Below, one piece after another: positions 56-29,913 of a DNA stretch of 64,000 nt. How positions within the stretch are numbered: the first letter of the stretch is position 1; each line of letters starts with the position of its first letter. The position numbers and the translations under genes are program-made. The notes beneath the pieces are model-generated. The model did not search any database. It saw only the letters and a list, made by a program, of their open reading frames with translations, and was not told where the DNA came from. The stretch is from Eledone cirrhosa. Lineage: Eukaryota. The stretch spans positions 25,048,001-25,112,000 of the forward strand of contig OZ024749.1 in NCBI GenBank assembly GCA_964016885.1. Reading direction: 5' to 3'.

Positions 56-256
56 TCAACAGACCTCGAAAGATTTCACTCGTCTGAAATCAGGATAATC
101 CTGATGATTTCAGATATATACATAATTATAGAGATGGATGGAGAGATACTTGTGCAGCTGCTAGATAGGTTGTAAATAGATACATATATAGTTAGATAGT
201 GAGATAGACATATAAAGAGATTGATACAGAGATATATGGATAGATAGATAGATATA

Positions 257-345
257 TTTCTTTCTTTATTTGCCACAGGGGCATACACAAATAGGACATT
301 ACAAGACGTGACGGCGGGTGTTTTACATAAAAATAACTTTCACAT
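257..345 (-). mobile_element. Extremely 5'-truncated Tx1/L1 copy (3' UTR only)
   Basis: Starts TTTC..TTTATTTGCCACAGGGGCA, matching the 3' termini at 496, 6406 and 7455. GATA runs on both sides. Confidence 0.75.
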
Positions 346-384
346 TAATAGATAGAGAGATAGATAGATAGATAGATACATATA

Positions 385-449
385 TTTCTTTATTAGCCAC
401 AGGACAAATACAAAGGGGGAAGTTTACATACAATAAAAACGTGTAAAAT
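385..449 (-). mobile_element. Extremely 5'-truncated Tx1/L1 copy (3' UTR only)
   Basis: TTTCTTTATTAGCCACAGGACAAATACAAAGGGGGAAGTTTACA matches the 3' end of the longer copies. GATA runs on both sides. Confidence 0.8.
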
Positions 450-485
<36 letters not shown>

Positions 486-703
486 TATAGATAGATTTCT
501 TTATTTACCATAAAGGCATAAAAAAAAGGGACAAATATAAAGGAGGAGTTTACATACAATCGAGTAAAAAGGGTATAAAATGGAAATAATCGAAAATAAC
601 CTCAAAAGGGAGGGGACGTGATGGGGGTTGCACACACCCCCGAAAAAGTGTGCAATCCTTTTCCCGGGGAGCACATGGAGAAGGTGCTCCCCTCTCCTTT
701 ACT

Positions 704-3700
704 TCTTTACCTACAGGATGGTATACAGAGAAGGCCCATTTACACGAGCCATTCTCGCCACTATCACCCACCTTTCATAAAACTGCCTGTGGCCAAGCAC
801 CTCTCTCTCCATTCTTATCCTTCTTCCGAAGTGATATCGGAAGAAGTAGAGCAGACTATGGCCAGAGAGGAAGTTGCCTGACCTCAGACCTTTCAATCGT
901 GTCCACCAAACAACCTCTTTCAGCATGGCTATTACGCACAGAAAAACCGCCTTTGCTTCCTTTGTGAAGAGGGGAGGCGGTTTGATTGTCATCACGGACT
1001 CGGCGCACCCGAGACAGCAGTCGTTCGGCGTAGCCCCACAGATCAGCCACGCCCGGACATTGCACCTATGCGTACGCAACGGTTTCTTCGTGACGCACGC
1101 ATCTAGGGCAAATCTTTTTTGAGGGATCCCTGCCCGGGCGCCCGTGTCTGTAGAGCCTCTCTCGAACGGGTAGAGCCCCCCGGTAGCATTGCCAGGCTAG
1201 TGACTTCTGGAAGTTGTCCATTGGTCCCGGGTCGAAATTCCTACCGAACAGGCTGGCCAGTTCGTCTTCTTCCATGTCCAGCGACTCTCCAAGGGTGTCA
1301 TCGCCCCGGCTAGCTACCAGCCCTCTATAGAATGATGAGGTGGATTCTCCACCGACGGCCTGGCCCGCTTGCCAGAGAGCCTGAGCGTCTGAGTACACTC
1401 AGTGTGCCAGTCTCCCAGTTTTCCGGATCTTTGCTTGACCCAGGACTGCAGCTCGGTGAGCGAGACGAGGCTGGGAAAGGCTCGTTTCACGAACGGAGCC
1501 CACACCGGTTGACCAGTGAGTAATACCTGTAGGTGCCGTAGCCTTAATGCGTGCCTACGCATCATCAACCACGGCATCCCCAGCCCTCCTTTCGAAGGTT
1601 GTTGGCAGCAGATGGATCTTCTCACCATAGGAGGGCGCTTCTTCCAAAGAAATTGGAAGAGCATGCGTTCCATGGTGGTGAGTGTTTCCTTAGGGCAAGG
1701 CACGACAGTCAGGCGGTAGTAAGTGACGGACGCTATGTAAATGTTCGCCACCTCCGCCCGCCCTTTTAGGGACAGCTTACACTTGGCCCATTTCTGGGTT
1801 AGTGCAAAAACCTTGTTCGTAACCTCGTTCCAGTTCTTTTCCACCTGGAGGTCCGGTCCAAACCAGACCCCAAGCAACGTTACCGGGCCCTCCGTCCAGT
1901 GTCCGACGACACCGTCGGGAGGCATCGGTCTGCCTCTCCACGTTCCGAGTTACAGCCCGATGGATTTTTCCCGGTTCAGTTTCGCTCCTGACAACCTTTC
2001 GTAATCATCCAGTAAGGTACCGATCGCCTCTATCTCCGAGTCGGTCGATACCATTACTGTTACGTCATCGGCGTAGGCCGACACCGCTTTGCTCAATCCT
2101 GGTTCCAGGGTGATACTCTGCAACAACTCCAACTTCCTCAGTAAAGGCTCGAGAGTCAATACGTACAGAAGGGAGGAGAGAGGGCACCCCTGTCGAATGG
2201 AACGTGTGATTTCGAACGGCTTCGAAAGGTAGCCGTTCACCTTGATCCTAGAACAGATGTGGTTGCTATGTAAGGCAGTGATCCAGCCTCTGAAAACAGG
2301 ACCGAACCCAGCCGCTAGCATCGCATCCAGGTAACCATGGTCGACCCTATCGAAGGCCTTAGACTGATCCAAGTTGATCAGGGCCCCACCGAAGCCGGGT
2401 TTGTTGCCAACCCTCTCTATGATGTATCGCATGAGGTGGAGGTTATCGTGAATGGACCTGGATGGGATAGCACATGTCTGCGCATCTCCCACCAGGCTAC
2501 CTACGACAGGCGCCAACCTCTTTGCTAACACCTTGGCCAGAATCTTTAACTCTGTGTTTAGCAGGGTTATGGGCCGAAAATTATTTATACTATCCCCCTT
2601 GTTCTCGTCCTTCCTCACCAGCGATACTACGCCCTTGACTACAGAACAAGGAATTCTCCCGTTCTGCTGCCAATTGCAGTAGACCGCTTCGAGGAGTTCG
2701 GAGAAGAAGACCGGCATTGCTAAATAAAGTTCGTAATGTATACCATCGAGACCTGGAGATTTGCGTCTGCTGCATTGGCTCAGCGCATCTCCGATCTCAT
2801 CAGCCGAGATTGGTCCCTCGCAGGACTCTGCCTCTTCGCTCGAGAGACGCGGCAGGCCGTCGAGGTATGGACCGAAATCCACGTCCCCGCCCGGACCCTC
2901 GCCTCCCCAGAATAATCGGGCAAAGTGCCTTTGAAATGCCTCGCACATCTGCTTAGGCTCCCGGATCACTCCTCCATCCTGGTCTTGCAACGACCGGATG
3001 GTGGATCGATTTCCACTATTAGCTTCTTTCACGTGGGCCCAGCCAACGGCTTTGGCCCCCTCATTACCTAGAGCACGTATTTTACTTCGAATGACGCAGC
3101 CTTCGTGCTTTGCATCGAAAAACTGGTTCAAGGCCGTCCTCGATGCCAGCACTCTGGCCACATCTTCGCTCTTGATTGCCTCTTCTAATTTACCTGTTAA
3201 TTCTTTCTCGTTTCTATTCCTATCGGCAACTAACATCTTGCTATAACTTATTGATTCTGTTCTAATCTCTCTTTTGAGAGATGCCCACCATCGGTTGTTG
3301 ACGATTGCACCCGTCAACCTCTCCTTAACTAATCTGCTAATCCGGTTTCTGTAAGTCTCTTTTGCCGGTAAAGACAAATTAAGTTTCCAGTAACCGGGAC
3401 CCTGTTTATGTGTTTTCTCGAGATTGACTACGCAGGTCACTAATTTGTGATCCATATAGCCAACCGTGCGCATTTCTGGACAGCTTAATATGTCCCTATC
3501 CTTACTTCTAACTAAGAATCTATCTAAGTACGATCTAGATTGACCACTGTGGTTTCTCCAAGTCCAGGTAGGCACAGTTGGAAAATCTAGTCGATATCTA
3601 TCGACCAAGTTAAAACGGTCGAGTAACCCCTTGAGGCTGTTACACCCCCTCTATTAGGACATGCTCCTGCATAGTCCCAACGTGCATCTAGGATGCCATT

Positions 3701-4126
3701 CCAATCCCCCGCTAGAAGCAGGGAACGCGACGTTCCCAGAAAAGTCTCCAAAAGCTGGAAGAAGTCGGGCCGTTCAGCTCCGAAAGGGGAGTAGACGGGG
3801 ACCAGTCTCAAGGCCGCACCTTCACTACTGCCAACGTCTAGCACCAACAAACGACCCTCCGGGTCCGAGTGAACAACCTGTACGGCAAGATCTAGGTGTT
3901 TTTGAAGCAGTACGACAACCCCACCCCCACCTCCAGGTTGACAGATAGATTCATGCACCTCAAAGTCATCGAAGGTAGGGGCCAGCTGCCGCCCGACACT
4001 GATCCGAGTCTCACAGATAACCATTACATTTATACCACATGACCTGAGGTCATTTAGAAGCTTTGCTTGCTTCCAAGTTGAGCCCAGGCCACGTGCATTC
4101 AAACATCCTACTCTTAACACATCCAT
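704..4126 (-). pseudogene. Frameshifted ORF2 (AP endonuclease-reverse transcriptase) of element 1
   Basis: Consecutive ORF pieces 3587-4126 (LNARG, CET, GDWN), 1950-3608 (YLDRF, DH, PGLDG, FRPITLLN, KAFDRV, RQGCPLS, AYADD), 1314-1925, 1066-1398 (CPRC) and 711-1079 are collinear with the intact ORF2 at 7685-11116. Confidence 0.93.
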
Positions 4127-4159
4127 GTGGGCGGCAGAGCCAAAGGAGAGTGTAGAGAC

Positions 4160-5936
4160 CTACCTTTCTGCTTCCTGGGGTTCGGGTCGCACGATCCATG
4201 GGGTCGGGGTGTTGGGTGAAGGGGTGTCTTGTGGTGCTGTGGGGTCGTCAGTGTGTGGTGGGGTTGGGGTGTTTGGAGTTGTGTTGGGGAGGGGAAGGGG
4301 AGGGGGAAAGCTTTTTAGTAGGACGCGGTTTATGGGTTTGACGGAGGGTGGTCCTACGTCCTCCTTAAAATCCTTTTTTAGTTTTTGGTAGAGGTTCATT
4401 GGGATCTTTATTAATTTTAAATGTGGGTTGTTTTCTGAAGAAACAAAGTTTACACCTTCGGTTTGTACCGAAGGATTATTGTTTATGAGTTCATTTAATT
4501 TATTATTGTTTCTGTTGATGTAAGTATAGTGTAATGTCTTTTTTTCGGATGGTGTGAGTGTTTCGAAGAGGGGAGGGCCAGGTTTGGTTTTGTTTGTTGC
4601 TGGAGGGGTTTTTTGTGTTTTGTTGGATTGTGTTGACATTTGGGTGGGGGTTGTTTGGCCTTGTGTGTTTTGCACATGTTTTCTTTTTTTCCTTTTAATC
4701 TGTGTGAAGGACTCCGTTTCTTCCTCCGAATTCGTTGGGTTATCTTCAATGTTGGAGGGAAGAGGTATGTTTGCTGGTAATGTTTCCGTGTTGGTTTTCT
4801 TTGTGGGGGAGATGGATGTCACTATGTTAGACTGTGTTGTGTGTTGTGGCTGCGGTGGTTGTGTTGTTTTATTGAGTGAGGGGTTGGGTGGGCCTGTATT
4901 TTGTTTTGGGTAATGTGTTGTGACTGTTTGTGTTGTGGTGTTGGTGTAGTTTTACTGAGGGACGGGTTGGGTGGGACTGAGTTGTGTTGTTTGTTTATCT
5001 GTTGTGGTGGTGGTGGTGGAGCTGGTGTTGGTAGCAGGGTTTTCTTGTTGTTGAGTTGGGGACAAGCCGCCTTCAGGTGCTTTCTGCCTGCACAGATATG
5101 ACAGGACGGTCTTCTCCCCTCCACGCTAATGTTTATATACCCGTGACCCTCTAATAGGATTCTGTCGGGTATTTGGGCGATGCGTTCAGGCTTCATTTGC
5201 ACTACAAGCTCTATACCTGTTCCACTGAACGCATTGCCTGTGGTTTTCCCAATGGAAATCACGTTGTCATTCGCTGGATCGATGAAGCCAGCTATGAGCC
5301 AGCAGTAGCCCACATCTGGCATCATTGCATCCAGCCATATGCGTTGAGTACTTTTACCCATATAAGATGGATAAAAGGTAAAATTTTTCGAACGAATCGG
5401 TGACAAATCACATTTTTTTGCCGCCGATTCGTTCTTCATAATAATCGCTAGGTTTCCATACAGTCTGTCTTTTCTTATGAAAGTGGTTTCATTAAGTACT
5501 TCTGTGAGTACTGTTTTGATTTCTGTTTGAGTTGGCTGTTCAGGTTTTTAGAAGTGTTGTTGATGGTGCGGAAAACGACCGTTCGACTTTCAATGTCTTT
5601 GGTGAGTTCTTGAGGCATTTTTACCGATAAAATACCATTCTCTCTTTCAGTTATATATTGTTTGGCGTCTGCAATTCTTTGTGCCACATCTGAAATATTT
5701 TCAGGTATATATGTCAAAGATTTCTTTGTTGTTTGTGCAAATGAAATCTTATTGGTATTGACTTTGTCGTCTGCTTTGCTTTCTGTTATGATGTTGTTTT
5801 CAAATGTTATTTTTGTGTTTGTTGTGTCTTTGTTTGTGGTATTAATATTGTAATGCAATTTTTCAAATTTTTTTTTTTTCGTTGTTGGAATCCATGTCCA
5901 GATTTGTGTTTTCGTCATTTTTCTCCGCAGATTCAT
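4160..5936 (-). pseudogene. Frameshifted ORF1 (gag-like, CCHC zinc knuckle, Pro/Thr-rich linker) of element 1
   Basis: Pieces 5475-5936, 4822-5439 (CHICAGRKHLKAAC) and 4160-4822. Shares motifs FYPSYMG, ERIAQIPDRI, VEGRRP and KPxNRVLLK with ORF1 of element 2. Confidence 0.85.
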
Positions 5937-6297
5937 CTGTTTTTATTTTATTTTTTCTTTCCTTCTCTATGACGTTAGTTGGGAAGGAAGGGGGGGGGGA
6001 CTAAAGCGTGCGAGCTTACAACTCTTACCGCTGTCCCCCCACCACTATTTTCGTTAGATTCGTTTAACATTTCTGTCAGACCATTGACATTTTTTTATGC
6101 CACAAATTTTTAAAAACAGGTTTTTCACCCCTAGGAGGGATAAAGATGAGCTGACCCACCGCCTGACAGTTCAGACGAGGGGTCAATCTACACAATAGTA
6201 TCAAAATTAAAATTGAACTTACAAAATTTCCGCAATAAATTTGAACAAAACTTCTGCGCGAAGTGAATTACATCTACGCTGTAGAACAGACGACAGC

Positions 6298-6303
6298 TAG
6301 ATT

Positions 6304-6363
<60 letters not shown>

Positions 6364-6372
6364 GATAGATAT

Positions 6373-6403
<31 letters not shown>
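6298..6403. repeat. (GATA)n microsatellite between Tx1 copies
   Basis: Direct inspection. Confidence 0.97.
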
Positions 6404-6405
6404 TG

Positions 6406-7439
6406 TTTCTTTTATTTGCCACTAGGGCATCAAAAGTGGGACAAGTACAAAGGGGGGAGTTTACACAAAAAGGCGTCCTCAATAAGGAGGAGGCAATAAC
6501 AAAATATAAAAATAAAATAAGATATAACAAAAAATAAAATGTTTAACAAAATCCTCAATAGAGAGGAGGCGCCTTGGGGGGTCGCACACACCCCCGAAAA
6601 AAGTGTGCAACCCTTCTCCCCAGGAGCACAGAGAAGGGGTGCTCCCTTGGTCTTTCATCTTCCTCACCTATAGTCTGATGTAGAGTGAAGGCCCATTCAC
6701 ACGGGCCATTCTCGCCACTTTCACCCATCTTTCATAGAAACGGCTGGGGTGCAGCACCTCTCTCTCCATCCTGATCCTTCTTCCGAAATGATATCGGAAG
6801 AAACGGACCAGTTGTTGGCCAGAGAGAAAGGTGCCTGACCTCAGTCCTTTCAGACGCGTCCACCATACAACCTCTTTCGCCATGGCTATTACGCACAGAA
6901 ACACAGCCTCTGCTTCATCTTTGAAGGGGGGAGGCGGCTTGATCATTACAATAGACTCGGTGGTCAACCGGATCGGTCCCACCCTTGACAGCAGTTGTTC
7001 GACATAGCCCCACATCGGCTACGCCCGAGCAGTGTACCAATGCGTGTGCAACGGTTTCCTCGTCGCACACGCATCTGGGACAGATCTTTTTGGCGGGGTC
7101 CCTACCCGGGCGCCCGTGTCTGTAGAGCCTTTCTCGAACGGGTAAAGCCCCTCGGTAGCACTGTCCATAGGTCCCGGGCTGAATGTCCTACCGAACAGGC
7201 TGGCCAGTTCGTCCTCCTCCATGTCTAGGGCTTCTCCGAGGGCGTCGTCGCACCTGCTGCGTACCAGCCCTCTATAGAATGTTGCGGTGGAGTCTCCACT
7301 GATAACCGGATCCGCCTGCCAGAGGGCGGTGAGCGCCTGGGCACACTCAGTGTGCCAGGCGCCCAGTTTTGTCGGTCTTTGCTTGACCCAGGATTGCAGC
7401 TCGGTGAGTGAGACGAGTCTGGGAAAGGTTCGTTTCACA
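6406..7439 (-). mobile_element. 5'-truncated Tx1/L1 copy (~1 kb: ORF2 C-terminus plus 3' UTR)
   Basis: ORFs 6668-7015 and 7019-7495 match the ORF2 C-terminus (KEVVWWTRLKGLRSG, ARVNGPSLY), with small internal deletions. Its 5' end abuts GATAGATAGATA at 7441. Confidence 0.92.
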
Positions 7440-7684
7440 AGATAGATAGATAAATTTCTATTTATTTGCCACGAGGGCACAAAAGAAGGGGACATTTACA
7501 CAGTGGGGGAGTTTACATAAATCGAGTAAAGAAAAAAGGAATAACAATAATAATATAACAATAAAAAGTCCTCAAAAGGGAGGGGGCGTGTTGGGGATTG
7601 CACATACCCCCGAAAAGTGTGCAACTCTTTTCGCGGGGGAAGCCCAGAGAGGAGGCGCTCCCCCTTTCCTCTTCACTTCTTCAC

Positions 7685-10600
7685 CTACAGAACAATGTAG
7701 AGAGAAGGCCCATTTACACGGGCCATTCTCGCTTCTTTCACCCACCTTTCATAAAACTGTCTGGGACCAAGCACTTCTCTCTCCATCCTGATTCTTCTTC
7801 CGAAGTGGTATCGGAAGAAGTAAACCAGGTGATGGCCGGAGAGAAAGTCACCCGACCTCAGACCTTTGAGGCGCGTCCACCACACAACCTCTTTCATCAT
7901 GGCTATTACGCACAGAAAGACCGCCTCTGCTTCATTTCTGAAGGGAGGAGGCGGCTTGATGTTCACCGCAGACTCGGCGGTTAATCGAATCGGCGCCACA
8001 CGCGACAGCAGTCGTTCGACGTAGCCCCACAGATCGGCAACGCCCGGGCAGTGTACCAGTGCATGCGCAACGGTTTCCTCGTCGCGCACGCATCTGGGAC
8101 AGATCTTTTTCGCGGGATCCCTGCCCGGGCGCCCGTGTCTGTAGAGCTTTTCTCGAACGGGCAGAGCCCCCCGGTAACACTGCCAGGCTAGGGACCTCTG
8201 GAAGTTGTCCATGGGTCCCGGGCCGAAAGTTCTACCGAACAGGCTGGCCAGTTCGTCCTCCTCCATGCCTAGCGACTCTCCAAGGGTGTCGTCGCCCCTG
8301 CTAGCCACCAACCCTCTATAGAATGTCGAGGTGGATTCTCCACTGACAGTCGGGTCCGCTTGCCAGATAGCCGTGAGCGCCTGGGCACACTCAGTGTGCC
8401 AGTTGCCCAGTTTTCTCGGTCTTTGCTTCACCCAGGATTGCAGTTCGGTGAGCGAGACGAGCTGTGGGAAGGCTCGCCTCACAAACGGGGCCCACACCGG
8501 CTGACCGTTGAGGAATACCTGTAGATGCCGTAGCCTCAATGCGTGCCTACGCATCAACAGCCACGGCATACCCAGCCCTCCTTTCGAAGGGTGCTGGCAG
8601 CAGATGGATCTCCTCACCATGGGAGGCCGCTTCTTCCAGAGGAACTGGAAGAGCATGCGTTCCATGATGGTGAGCTTTTCCTTGGGGCAAGGCACGACGG
8701 TCAGGCGGTAGTAGATGACGGACGCTATGTAAGCGTTCGTCACCTCCGCCCGACCTTTCAGTGATAGTTTGCACTTGGCCCACTTCTGGGTCAGCGCAAA
8801 CACCCTGCTCGTCACCTCGCCCCAATTCTTCTCCACCTGGAGGTCCGGTCCGAACCAGACCCCGAGCAGCTTCACCGGGCCCTCCGTCCACCGCCCGACG
8901 ACACCGTCTAACGGCATCGGTTTGCCCCTCCACGTTCCGAGTTGCAAACCGACTGACTTGTCCTGGTTCAGCTTAGCCCCCGTCAGCCTTTCGTATTCCT
9001 CCAGTAGGGTGGCGATCGCCCCGATTTCCGAGGCGTCCGCCACCATTACTGTTACGTCGTCGGCATAGGCCGAGACCGCTTTGTGCAATCCCGGTTCCAG
9101 GGGTATGCCCCGCAGCAACTCCAACTTCCGCAGCAGTGGCTCGAGAGTCAATACGTACAGAAGGGAGGAGAGGGGGCACCCCTGTCTGATGGATCGGGTG
9201 ATTTGAAACGGCTCCGAGAGGTAGCCGTTTACTTTAATCCTAGAGTAGATGTTGCCACTGTGCATGGCAGAAATCCAGCCCCTGAAAACGGGTCCGAAGC
9301 CCGCCGCCGCTAGCACCGCATCCAGGTAACCATGGTCGACCCTATCGAACGCCTTAGATTGATCCAAGTTGATCAGGGCCCCACCAAAGCCGGGTTCGTA
9401 GCCAACCCTCTCTATGATGTATCGCATGAGGTGGAGGTTGTCGTGAATGGACCTGGACGGGATAGCGCATGTCTGCGCGTCTCCCACCAAACCACCCACC
9501 ACAAGCGCCAACCTCTTCGCCAACACCTTGGCCAAAATCTGTAACTCTGCATTCAGCAGAGTTATGGGCCTAAAGTTACTTAAGTCGTCCCCCTTGCTCT
9601 CGTCCTTCCTCACTAGCGTGACCACGCCCTTGGTCACAGAACAGGGAATTCTCCCGTTCTGTTGCCAGTTGCAATAGACAGCCTCGAGGAGTTCGGAGAA
9701 CAAGACCGGCATAGCTAAATAAAGTTCGTATGGTAGACCATCGAGACCCGGGGATTTGCGTCTGCTGCATTGGCTGAGCGCTTCCCCGATTTCAGTGGCT
9801 GTGATTGGCCCTTCGCAGCACTCCGCTTCGCCGCTCGAAAGACGCGGTAGACCGTCGAGGTATGGACCGAAGTCCACATCCCCGTCCGGCCCCCCGCCAC
9901 CTCCGAACAGTCGAGCAAAGTGCCTTTGAAAGGTCTCGCACATTCGCTCAGGTTCAAGGATCACCCGTCCATCCTGGTCTCGCAAAGACCGAATGGTGGA
10001 TTTAATCCCACTCTTGGCTTCTGTCACGCGGGCCCAGCTAACAGCTTTGGTCCCCTCGTTTCCTAAAACACGTATTTTACTTCGGACAACGCAGCCTTCG
10101 TGCTTCGCGTCAAAGAACTGGCTCAATGCCGTTCTCGTCGCTAACACTCTGGCTACGTCTCCGCTCCTAATCGCCTCTTCTAGTTTATCTGTTAACTCCC
10201 TTTCCCTCCTATTTCTATTCGCCGCTAGTTCCTTACTGTAACCTATCGAACTTACTCTAATCTCTCTCTTTAGAGATATCCACCACCTACTGTTGACGAT
10301 CGCTCCCGTCAACCGCATCTTAACTAAGCTACTAATCCGGTTTCTGTAATCTTTCTTTGTCGGTAAGGACAAGTTCATCTTCCAGTAACCGGGACCCTGT
10401 CTATGCGTTCTATCAAGGTTGACCACGCAGGTCACTAATTTGTGATCTGAATAGCCAACCATGATCAGTTCTGGACAACTAAATACGTCCCTATCCTTAC
10501 TCCTAACCAAAAACCTATCTAGGTACGATCTAGATTGTCCACTGCGGTTTGCCCAGGTCCAGGTTGGCGCAGTTGGACAATCTAGTCGAAATCTATCGAC

Positions 10601-11116
10601 CAGGTCGAATCGATCGAGTAACCCCTTGAGGCTGCTACACCCCCCTCTATCGGGACATGCCCCTGCATAGTCCCAACGCGCATCTAGGATTCCATTCCAG
10701 TCCCCCACTAAAAGCAGGGAACGCGACGTTCCTAGAAAAGTCTCCAGACGTTGGAAGAAGTCGGCTCTCTCCGCCCCGAAGGGAGCATAAAGACCGACCA
10801 GTCTGAAAGCCCCGCCTTCACCACCTCCGACGTCCAGCACCAGTAATCGACCCCCCGGGTCCGAGTGAACAATCTGTACGTCGAGAGTCAGACGTTTATC
10901 CAGCAGTACGGCAACTCCCCCCCCCCCGCCTCCGGGTTGACAGAGAGATGCGTGCATCTCAAAGTCATCGAAGGCGGGCGCCAGCTGTCTCACGCTGCTG
11001 ATCCGACTCTCGCAAACAACCATCACATCTATACTTTGTGACCTGAGGTCACTTAGAAGCTTTGCTTGCTTCCAAGCTGAGCTCAGGCCACGCGCGTTCA
11101 AACAGCCAACTCTCAA
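7685..11116 (-). CDS. ORF2 polyprotein: AP endonuclease, reverse transcriptase, C-terminal CCHC finger (1143 aa)
   Basis: APE motifs LNARG, GDWN, YLDRF, SDH. RT motifs SPGLDG, FRPITLLN, DQSKAFDRV, RQGCPLS, AYADD, KLLGV. CPRC-x8-H-x4-C near the C-terminus. The GPGYWK linker and GGLG motif are typical of L1/Tx1. No in-frame ATG at the start. Confidence 0.96.
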   Translation of the reverse strand: MRVGCLNARGLSSAWKQAKLLSDLRSQSIDVMVVCESRISSVRQLAPAFDDFEMHASLCQPGGGGGGVAVLLDKRLTLDVQIVHSDPGGRLLVLDVGGGEGGAFRLVGLYAPFGAERADFFQRLETFLGTSRSLLLVGDWNGILDARWDYAGACPDRGGCSSLKGLLDRFDLVDRFRLDCPTAPTWTWANRSGQSRSYLDRFLVRSKDRDVFSCPELIMVGYSDHKLVTCVVNLDRTHRQGPGYWKMNLSLPTKKDYRNRISSLVKMRLTGAIVNSRWWISLKREIRVSSIGYSKELAANRNRRERELTDKLEEAIRSGDVARVLATRTALSQFFDAKHEGCVVRSKIRVLGNEGTKAVSWARVTEAKSGIKSTIRSLRDQDGRVILEPERMCETFQRHFARLFGGGGGPDGDVDFGPYLDGLPRLSSGEAECCEGPITATEIGEALSQCSRRKSPGLDGLPYELYLAMPVLFSELLEAVYCNWQQNGRIPCSVTKGVVTLVRKDESKGDDLSNFRPITLLNAELQILAKVLAKRLALVVGGLVGDAQTCAIPSRSIHDNLHLMRYIIERVGYEPGFGGALINLDQSKAFDRVDHGYLDAVLAAAGFGPVFRGWISAMHSGNIYSRIKVNGYLSEPFQITRSIRQGCPLSSLLYVLTLEPLLRKLELLRGIPLEPGLHKAVSAYADDVTVMVADASEIGAIATLLEEYERLTGAKLNQDKSVGLQLGTWRGKPMPLDGVVGRWTEGPVKLLGVWFGPDLQVEKNWGEVTSRVFALTQKWAKCKLSLKGRAEVTNAYIASVIYYRLTVVPCPKEKLTIMERMLFQFLWKKRPPMVRRSICCQHPSKGGLGMPWLLMRRHALRLRHLQVFLNGQPVWAPFVRRAFPQLVSLTELQSWVKQRPRKLGNWHTECAQALTAIWQADPTVSGESTSTFYRGLVASRGDDTLGESLGMEEDELASLFGRTFGPGPMDNFQRSLAWQCYRGALPVREKLYRHGRPGRDPAKKICPRCVRDEETVAHALVHCPGVADLWGYVERLLSRVAPIRLTAESAVNIKPPPPFRNEAEAVFLCVIAMMKEVVWWTRLKGLRSGDFLSGHHLVYFFRYHFGRRIRMEREVLGPRQFYERWVKEARMARVNGPSLYIVL

Positions 11117-11121
11117 TTGAT

Positions 11122-12985
11122 CTATTTTGGTGTTGAAAGTGAAGAAAGAAAAGCACTTACCTCTCCGGGTTGCGTAATTTCCATGGCATCAGGTGTGTTG
11201 GGTGGAGGGATGTTTTGTGGTGGTGTGGGGGTACACATGTGTGGTGGGGTTGGGGTATTTGGAGTTGTGTCAGGGAGAGGGGCGGTTATGGGGAAATCTT
11301 TCAAGAGGACGCGATTCAACGGTTTTAAACAGGGGGGGCTCACGTCCCGTCTAAATTGTTCTTTTAAGGAACGATAAAGGTCCAGAGGGACCTTTATCAT
11401 TTTTAAATGGGTGAAGTTCTCTGTTGAGATAAAGTTTGGCCCTTCGGTCTGCACCATAGGGTTATTGTTTATTAATTTAACCAGTTTTTTGTTTTCTTTA
11501 TTTATATATGTGTATTGCAACGTCTTTTTTTGTGATGCTGTCAATGTTTCGGAGAGGGGAGGCGCAGATTTATTTTTGTTTGTTGAGGGTGGGGTGTTTT
11601 TGATTGGAGTTGGTGTTTGTGTGTGGGTTATTTGTGGTGTGCTGGGTGTGTGTTTTCTTTTTTTTCTTTTAACTTGTCTGAAGGCTTCTCCTCCTTCTTC
11701 TTCAGAAGTTGGGGGAAACTCTTCAGCGCTAGGTGGGAGGGACGTGTTGTGTGGTTGTTTTTTTTTTTGCGGGAGGGGTAGATTTGTTACTGTTTTTTTT
11801 ATTATTTGTTTGGAATGGGTTTTGTGGTGGTGGTGGTGGTAATGTTTGTGTCGTGCTTGTGGTTGGTGATGGTGGTGGTGATGTTTGTGTTGTGGTTGGT
11901 GGTGGTGATTTTTGTGTCGTGCTTGTGTTTGGTGCTGGTGGTGGTGATGTTTGTGTTGTGTTTGTGGTTGGTGGTGTCTGTATTTTGTTTGCTGTGTGTG
12001 GTATTAGTGTATTTTTGGAGGTGGGTGGTGCTGGTGTACTGTTTGTGGTGGGTGTGGGCAATAGTCCTTTTTGGGGGATACGTTTCGGGCAGTTAGCCTT
12101 AACGTGTCCCCTTTCCATGCATAAATAGCATGCTGGTCTTCTCCCCTCTACAATTATGTCTATTGGGGTAAGGTCATCCAGCCAGATGCGATCCGGGATT
12201 TGTGCTATTCTTTCGGGCCTCATTTGGACTAGTATGTCGAGGCCCATTCCCAGGAACGCATCTCCAGTTGCCTTCCCCATTGACAGCATAGTGTCTTCGC
12301 CCATATCAATGAAGCCAGCAATAGCCCACCAGAAGTCCATTGTGGGCAGCATTGTTTTTACTTTTACTCTCTGTGTTCTTCTACCCATGTAGGAGGGATA
12401 GAAGCTATATGTTGTCGACGAGAGTGGGCTTAGGGAAAGCTTCTCCGCCGTTTCTTTGTCTCTTGTTAGGACCGAAATGCTGCCATAGAGTCGGTCCTTT
12501 CGTATGAAGAGAATATTCTTCATATAGTCTTTTATGACTAACTCTATTTCCATTTGGCTGGGCTGTGCTGGCTTTCTTGTCTGGTTCAGTATAGTTCTGT
12601 ATATAACTGTGTTTTCTGCTCTGGCTTTCTTGAATTCTGGGGGGGAGTTAATGGAAAACATTCCGTTCTCCCCCAAAACAATATGTTTCTTTGCTTCGGC
12701 CAGTTTTTCTCTGGCGGCAGTTAGGTCAATTGGTGTGTATGTAATGGATTGCTTTGTTTTCTGGGCGAAAGTTGCCCTGTCGTTATTTGTATTATTTTCT
12801 GTTTGTTTGTTTTCTGTTTGCTCATTTTCCTTAACATTTGTTTTTTCATTTTGTTTGTTTGTTTCAATGTCTAATTTTGTTGTAATTATTTTTTGTTCTT
12901 CAGACTTGGGGGGCGTGGCAGAGCTAATGGCAGACATGTCTGCCATCTTTTCCGCCATGCTGCCAAGAAAGAAATTTTTCGGCAA
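11122..12985 (-). CDS. ORF1 nucleic-acid-binding protein with one frameshift (11729-12985 plus the frame containing 11122-11544)
   Basis: Zinc knuckle CYLCMERGHVKANC and Pro/Thr-rich repeats. The C-terminal part is homologous to 4160-4822. The frame changes around the homopolymer runs at ~11758-11800. Confidence 0.85.
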
Positions 12986-13159
12986 AAATAGATATTTATT
13001 TTACCCCCTAAAAAGGGGGTAAATGCAAAAATGTTTCCCTAAATAACAGGGGTTAGTGTTCCAAATGTGTTGCACTAAAAAATTTATCCGGTACTTACAA
13101 TAGTAAGGGTAAATCCCGATGGAATAGCGGAGCCGATGCGAAGCGTGTCTTACTCTATC

Positions 13160-13160
<1 letters not shown>

Positions 13161-13224
<64 letters not shown>

Positions 13225-13238
13225 GGATAGATAGATAT

Positions 13239-13269
<31 letters not shown>

Positions 13270-13318
13270 TACAGGATAGATAGACAGATAGATAGATAGA
13301 TAGACAGGATAGATAGAC
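13161..13318. repeat. (GATA)n microsatellite at the 5' flank of element 2
   Basis: Direct inspection. Confidence 0.97.
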
Positions 13319-20357: not shown

Positions 20358-20958
20358 TACGAGGTTGGGCTGAAATATTCATAGTCTGACTATAAAGGCT
20401 TGATGCTAGAGCTGTGAAAACTAGCATGCATTAATTTCAGCTCTTGTTATTAATAACTGTATTGTTTCTTTTGAAGGAATATGTTGAAAAATGAAACAGT
20501 GATGTTAGGGCTGTGAAATCTTACATACATTAATTTTAACTCTTATTAATAATTGTTTCTTTTTCAAGGACTATGTTGAAAAATAAAACACATTTTCTCA
20601 TTGCATGAGAGTATCTTGGTTACAGTCTCACTATGAAAGATTGATGCTAGAGCTGTGAAATCTGACATACATTAATTTCAAATCTCGTTATTGATAAAAG
20701 CATTGTTTCTCTTCAAGAAATATGTTGAAAAATAAACATCATTTGATCATTCCGTGAGGGTATCTTGGTCATATACTGACTATGAAAGAGTGGTGTTGGA
20801 GCTGTGAAATCTAGTATGCATTAATTTCAACTCTTGTTATCAATAACTGCATTTTCAAGAAATATGTTGAAAAATAAACCTCATTTAGTTATTCCATGAG
20901 AGTAACTTTGTCAGCCTATGAAATGTTCAACCATTGAACTTTTCAGCTGATCGTTGTA
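20358..20958 (+). mobile_element. Mariner-type MITE with four internal tandem copies
   Basis: TA-bounded imperfect TIRs (TACGAGGTTGGGCTGAAA / TTTCAGCTGATCGTTGTA). The internal repeat ends TATGTTGAAAAATAA (YVEK*), as at mariner transposase C-termini. Confidence 0.6.
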
Positions 20959-29562: not shown

Positions 29563-29913
29563 TTTCTTTATTAGCCACAAGGGCGCACAAGAAAAGGGGA
29601 CAATACAAAGACATGCCGGGGATTTTACATACAGTCGTGTAAAAAATATAAAAACTAACAATTGCAACAATCGAAATCCCCAATAGGGGGGAGGCGCCAC
29701 AAATGGGTTGTTTAATACCCCGTCGATAGAACAACCCTCAACTCCAGGAGCGTGTTGTGCAAGTGCTCCTTTCTTCCTTAGCTCTCTTCCTCAACCTTAT
29801 AAACAGAGAAGGCCCACTCACTCGGGCCATTTTCGCTTCATTCACCCACCTTTCAGTAAATTTACTGGGGTGCAGTGCCTCTCTCTCCACCCTGATTCTT
29901 CTTCTAAAGTGAT
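29563..29913 (-). mobile_element. 5'-truncated Tx1/L1 copy in a GATA tract
   Basis: Encodes HFRRRIRVEREAL..ERWV..ARVSGPSL like the ORF2 C-terminus and has the same 3' terminus. GATA on both sides. Confidence 0.9.

Follow-up and report, generated by a model that had tools for sequence, protein, structure and literature searches.

Analysis of a 64,000-nucleotide stretch of the Eledone cirrhosa genome (contig OZ024749.1, positions 25,048,001 to 25,112,000; referred to below as the window) identified an array of Tx1-like LINE copies that was probably built by insertions of five subfamilies (fam1 to fam5) into one (TATC)n/(GATA)n microsatellite, with orientation and register likely set by target-primed reverse transcription (TPRT) at a GATA|GATA nick. 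This reading is based on TATC repeats flanking both ends of the copies, the sense-strand bias of these repeats, target-site duplications (TSDs) of about 19 bp that start with TAT, and a tail-less 3' join. The five minus-strand copies, from 65 bp to 5.8 kb long, that had been proposed in a first-pass annotation were recovered with their 3' ends exactly where it had placed them, and GATA arrays both flank and separate all five copies, as it had claimed (Table 1).

Table 1. Features located in the window, with positions counted from its first nucleotide.
Feature	Positions	Strand	Remarks
GATA array, degenerate	176-256		3' flank of copy 1
Copy 1, fam1 (older subfamily), 88-bp 3' end	257-344	-	other copies 94-97% identical to copy 1
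GATA spacer	345-384		separates copies 1 and 2
Copy 2, fam2, 65-bp 3' end	385-449	-	lacks a short internal stretch present in other fam2 3' ends
GATA spacer, ~12 units	450-495		
Copy 3, fam3, full-length, ~5.8 kb	496-6303	-	ORF1 and ORF2 frameshifted; genomic relatives ~96%
GATA array, ~26 units	6304-6405		
Copy 4, fam4, 5'-truncated, 1035 bp	6406-7440	-	99% identical to a full-length copy elsewhere
Short spacer	7441-7454		family dinucleotide and three TATC units (sense)
Copy 5, fam5, full-length, 5706 bp	7455-13160	-	youngest large subfamily
ORF2 of copy 5	7685-11188	-	1167 aa stop to stop; APE endonuclease, RT, zf-RVT
Splice-donor-like motif	11105-11145	-	ORF1/ORF2 junction
Overlap of fam5 ORF1 stop with ORF2 frame	11105-11188	-	
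ORF1 of copy 5	11122-12958	-	CCHC knuckle (weak); split into two frames, 409 aa from ATG
66-bp tandem repeat, 2.5 copies	11819-11981		in copy 5 ORF1; encodes a Thr/Pro-rich linker
GATA array, ~39 units	13161-13317		lies upstream of copy 5; non-element DNA comes next
149-bp tandem repeat, ~3 copies	20491-20913		
Short ATT-ended repeat	21390, 22225, 25923, 45678, 48970, 52393 and two on the minus strand		L282, L284, L289, L292
Sixth lineage member, solo, 5'-truncated	29563-29913	-	outside the array; TATC on both sides; 12-bp duplication by eye

The mutual divergence of the copies was borne out, as the three long ones are only 78.0% (copies 3 and 4), 81.0% (copies 3 and 5) and 78.6% (copies 4 and 5) identical. 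The accompanying claim of variable 5' truncation held for copy 4, but copies 3 and 5 are full length: each starts at a base at which many other copies in the genome start as well. The spacers between copies in the array measure 14-102 bp. Copy 2 was compared by eye with the fam2 ends located upstream of two other loci (L043 and L049). A 70-bp fam4 end and a 76-bp fam2 end gave no matches in the genome in searches that skip common words, and the flank counts below cover the four subfamilies other than fam2.

Copies for a flank test across the 3.0 Gb genome were picked by element 3' sequence alone, using fam5, fam3, fam4 and fam1, for which the 3'-end queries returned 1299, 741, 25 and 725 first-look candidates, respectively, numbers that do not represent copy numbers. 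The flank sample comprised 40 of 40 fam5, 39 of 40 fam3, 23 of 26 fam4 and 29 of 40 fam1 matches, with window copies and duplicates excluded and 10 fam1 matches having no locus. Two copies (L065 and L241) whose called 5' end lay at the locus edge were dropped, and the resulting 129 copies are the best-scoring matches, mostly from two contigs, rather than a census.

An exact 8-nt TATC repeat on the sense strand was found within 25 nt upstream of 100 of these 129 copies, including 68 of 71 full-length copies, 32 of 58 copies called truncated, and 78 of the 104 copies for which no family 3' end was detected upstream. Most copies collected genome-wide thus carry TATC at their 5' junction, as had been predicted for a lineage with this target. 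A TATC repeat on the opposite strand preceded a single copy (1/129), which is a 5' inversion. An 8-nt TATC repeat occurred in 148 of 79,839 random 25-mers (0.19%) drawn from 20 arbitrary 10-kb stretches, and the enrichment of TATC upstream of the copies is far beyond chance. In an independent query with the fam5 5' end, which covered 30 loci taken from the 40 best of 661 candidates, a TATC repeat ending in ATCT preceded all 30 full-length 5' ends. In about 12 of the 29 copies without an exact upstream repeat, the boundary was miscalled or the copy is inverted or chimeric, and several others are genuine insertions at a minimal C|TAT site, indicating that the TATC specificity is a strong preference and not absolute. 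Contigs of two other organisms (one contig and two contigs; runs X7 and X8) likewise lead from the 3' end into a GATA repeat, a weak indication at these numbers.

The 3' end of the element consists, in this order, of an AATAAA-like motif, GAAA, a dinucleotide typical of the family (TT in fam5, TA or TC in fam3, mostly CA or CT in fam4, and GA in fam1), and then TAT. The third base after GAAA starts TAT in 125 of the 129 copies and TATC in 118, and none of the 129 has a poly(A) at the 3' end.

TSDs were searched for with the 3' join as the anchor. Among the 66 copies with an informative 3' flank, i.e. one that leaves the pure repeat early, a unique TSD was called automatically in 31 (fam3, 15/20; fam5, 3/14; fam4, 4/13; fam1, 9/19). 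Removal of five low-complexity or doubtful calls and addition of two on re-inspection resulted in a hand-picked set of 28 unique-sequence TSDs, which are 10-23 bp long (median 19) and all of which begin with TAT. The base preceding the TSD is C at 23 of the 28 sites, and a further bias is seen upstream, with T at -4 in 22 and C at -5 in 21. Some of these sites are ordinary, non-microsatellite DNA with only C|TAT (L197, L205, L218, L234, L255 and L267). The fact that duplications of unique sequence start with TAT indicates that TATC is a pre-existing target and not merely a tail. At two loci (L189 and L196), the 3' join has an extra TATC unit that is missing from the target, which would fit RNA reading into the flank, or alternatively slippage. 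The view that fam5 lacks long TSDs altogether was rejected, since three fam5 copies (L149, L150 and L173) have TSDs of 18-21 bp; in this family the 5' join is invariant, yet only 3 of the 14 informative copies show a long TSD. Two copies (L265 and L276) carry a 5' segment in inverted orientation, as in twin priming.

Identity to kin is 94-97% for fam1, about 96% for fam3 and 99-100% for fam4 and fam5. Copy 5 and the other fam5 copies share about 97.6-99.8% identity, and of the best 40 of the 1299 fam5 candidates, 37 reach full length or come within 25 nt of it, so that fam5 is, judging from its sequences, a young family with mostly full-length copies. ORF1 reads 611-612 aa in 11 of 37 fam5 copies, and ORF2 is open from end to end in 12 of 40. 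The APE catalytic motifs are present in ORF2 and can be aligned to L1-EN, and matches to the element proteins in the ESM Atlas and NCBIfam were to generic RT/endonuclease only. No ATG is located ahead of the first endonuclease motif in the fam5 ORF2, and eight other ORF2s that were compared have one; the fam5 ORF1 stop overlaps the ORF2 frame. AUG-independent reinitiation has been reported for mammalian L1 and is a candidate mode of starting fam5 ORF2.

In nine of nine ORF2s compared, from TATC and ATT families (L170, L221, L222, L216, L262, L344, L334, L377 and L347), a G|GTRRGT that resembles a splice donor, with a pyrimidine run after it, precedes the start of the endonuclease by about 35-50 nt. 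Spliced copies made via this motif were rejected as a possibility, as none of six internal deletions starts there. A ribozyme as the 5' leader was also rejected, since no Rfam match at gathering level was found over the elements, as was a structured leader, because the first 130 nt folded no better than shuffled sequences (z of -0.88 for copy 5 and -0.84 for copy 3).

Relatives with about 70-74% identity and an (ATT)n end were present in two of the 20 arbitrary 10-kb stretches. In the first of these ATT lineages, ATT follows the 3' end at all 30 loci, in one case as a single unit, and an ATT array precedes each of the 10 full-length 5' ends that 20 stretches yielded; in the second, ATT is present at both ends in 12 of 12. 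Their ORF2 is 66-68% identical to that of fam5. The TATC subfamilies form one clade (support 98-100), and the ATT lineages form a clade in the EN tree (82) and in the whole-ORF2 tree (62), and a grade in the RT tree (75). Because the sisters occupy (ATT)n with the same habit, the target would have changed at least once within the radiation, and a switch of landing site within one Tx1-like lineage is likely. The existence of a TATC-preferring Tx1-like lineage with ATT-preferring sisters is itself well supported.

Multi-kb members of the radiation were present in 3 of the 20 arbitrary stretches (L281, L290 and L291), and, as far as so small a sample indicates, the radiation may account for a few percent of the genome. 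One short repeat is very common, with eight occurrences in the window and nine in 200 kb; its 3' end resembles that of the ATT-type LINEs and is followed by ATT units, which makes it a candidate partner SINE of these LINEs.

Columns that separate TATC from ATT families number 16 of 230 in the endonuclease and 9 of 350 in the RT. One of the 16 lies at the tip of a hairpin that otherwise differs little between the TATC and ATT families; according to PMC1950540, the corresponding hairpin of L1-EN probes the minor groove. We infer that target specificity is probably driven by the endonuclease, but the APE domain may not set it alone, as the element also ends directly in TATC, with no poly(A). The APE domain would nick the GATA strand at A|G (C|TAT on the top strand), the first nick likely being made, by analogy with established TPRT, at GATA|GATA on that other strand. 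The element RNA likely runs on into flanking UAUC, and this tail would pair with the freed ...ATA-3' primer, allowing copying to start at the exact end of the element; a cut in the second strand would likely be made about 19 bp downstream. With TATC left on both sides by every insertion, the site would stay a target and copies could stack head to tail. For fam5, the in-phase 5' joins and the scarcity of long TSDs might result if the end of the cDNA anneals to an ATCT in the overhang of the target.

An L1-EN loop-graft study counts against an explanation by endonuclease nicking, as integration preference did not track the altered nicking profile (PMC1950540). It is conceivable, although rather unlikely, that specificity arises after nicking: a loosely AT-specific endonuclease would nick widely, pairing of a read-through UAUC or AUU tail would select the priming sites, and the target, being inherited via the RNA tail, could switch with little change of the enzyme. 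The 3' join straight into TAT without poly(A), the minimal sites with only C|TAT in common, the RNA-like additional TATC units in L189 and L196, and the small difference in the endonuclease hairpin between the two kinds of family, with one diagnostic position at its tip, are all consistent with such selection, and RNA-target pairing was raised as an extra constraint in PMC1950540. However, the bases upstream of the nick, which TAT priming does not need, are conserved too (C at -1 in 23 of 28 sites), in part through repeat periodicity, and the endonuclease has a higher density of columns separating the two kinds of family than the RT.

Local duplication, or a single event with template jumps between RNAs, is very improbable as the origin of the array in the window. 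Tandem neighbours are common, being found for 25 of the 129 copies (a rough pattern) and for 15 of 37 full-length fam5 copies, a repeated fam2 and fam5 unit exists elsewhere, and the same minimal spacer occurs at several loci. The window copies, however, are only 78-81% identical and come from subfamilies of different ages, suggesting separate events at this locus; their spacers are arrays of variable length, and solo copies have the same flanks and TSDs. In addition, the nearest relatives elsewhere, at 94-100% identity, are different ones for each copy of the window (by eye for copy 2), which argues that the array is not a segmental duplication. Together with the genome-wide flanks and the unique-sequence TSDs, this upholds the original proposal of independent, strand-oriented insertions into TATC. 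Elsewhere, fam5 often begins 11 nt past a fam2 3' end with an identical spacer (L049, L050, L059, L157 and L159), and co-mobilisation by read-through or a preferred first TATC are candidate explanations for these junctions. A 744-bp unit of truncated fam2 and fam5 is tandemly repeated at one other locus (L049, L050), indicating that some arrays grow by duplication; duplication or co-mobilisation does contribute to some arrays. That TATC is merely a 3' tail made by the element, the 5' TATC being the tail of a neighbour or chance, would account for TATC after the 3' end in 118 of 129 copies but is virtually dismissed by the solo copies, which are preceded by TATC far above the 0.19% background, and refuted by TSDs in which TAT and unique sequence stand on both sides.

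Insertion by TPRT into a pre-existing TATC repeat being the preferred reading for the array, a wider interpretation is offered tentatively and may well need revision: that these elements are young Tx1-like LINEs without a tail, forming an octopod radiation not described so far, which switched between (ATT)n and (TATC)n, in which specificity is shared between the endonuclease and a read-through RNA tail that renews itself, and whose youngest TATC family is mostly full-length and lacks an ORF2 AUG. If so, the TATC/ATT pair, with its two-thirds identity, would offer a natural experiment on reprogramming LINE target specificity. The genome studied here holds closely related, apparently intact elements with two targets, making the old question of endonuclease versus RNA-target pairing testable by swaps. 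The lineage adds a tetranucleotide target (GATA/TATC) to those of sequence-specific APE LINEs, and GATA and ATT microsatellites in such genomes are insertion hotspots, with consequences for assembly, repeat annotation and marker design.

The elements are APE-type non-LTR retrotransposons with the features of the L1 group, namely ORF1, an ORF2 with N-terminal APE, RT and a C-terminal zinc motif, absence of an LTR, and presence of 5' truncations and TSDs. The proposed L1/Tx1 affiliation agrees with phmmer searches in which ORF2 scored 305.7 bits against Xenopus Tx1 and 169.3 bits against human L1 at the same database size. In a FastTree RT tree, whose rows include neither vertebrate L1 nor Repbase references, the lineage forms its own long branch at an open fork beside the vertebrate YTX2 group and is not nested among vertebrate Tx1 proteins; on these sequence comparisons it is called Tx1-like. 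For the Tx1 clade, PMC4494074 gives target preference in more than 20% of flanks as a criterion, and here 100 of 129 upstream flanks carry the target.

Among named homologs of ORF2, the nearest comes from Argonauta hians (RT region, 68%), which makes an octopod host likely, and on the same ground the 13 recently active L1-Tx1 families annotated in Octopus vulgaris, with 421 insertions (PMC13282606), probably belong to the same radiation; the main text of that paper gives no target for them, containing neither "GATA" nor "target". A full-text literature search, whose scope was papers rather than Repbase target notes, found no GATA/TATC-specific LINE, and the TATC family may be undescribed so far, or may already be described in Repbase or in the target figure or supplements of PMC4494074.

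Tx1 (Tx1L) of Xenopus laevis, represented by YTX2 (P0286), resembles the lineage in having ORF1 and an APE-RT ORF2 (28.8% identity over 947 aa), but it targets the Tx1D transposon (PMC4494074), and the lineage described here is a separate long branch in the RT tree. Similar in habit are the teleost Tx1-clade elements Kibi and Koshi, specific for (TC)n and (TTC)n, and crocodilian Tx1 families that target (TTCC)n/(TTTC)n (PMC4494074, PMC3812793); microsatellite-specific families of this clade are also described in PMC4640811 and PMC3747384. Like these, the present elements are APE-type Tx1-group LINEs specific for a microsatellite. They differ in the repeat, which is TATC here and ATT in the sisters, and in their invertebrate host, and they show no evidence of close kinship among the sequences compared, none of which is named Kibi or Koshi; all 28 TSDs begin with TAT and thus do not fit (TC)n or (TTC)n. 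Microsatellite targets are also used by Waldo, (ACAY)n, and Mino, (AC)n, of the R1 clade and by Dong, (TAA)n (PMC3812793). These three belong to other clades, although the repeat used by Dong is that of the ATT sisters. Dong is a member of the R4 clade and has a restriction-like endonuclease, so that the TAA target it has in common with the ATT sisters would be convergent.
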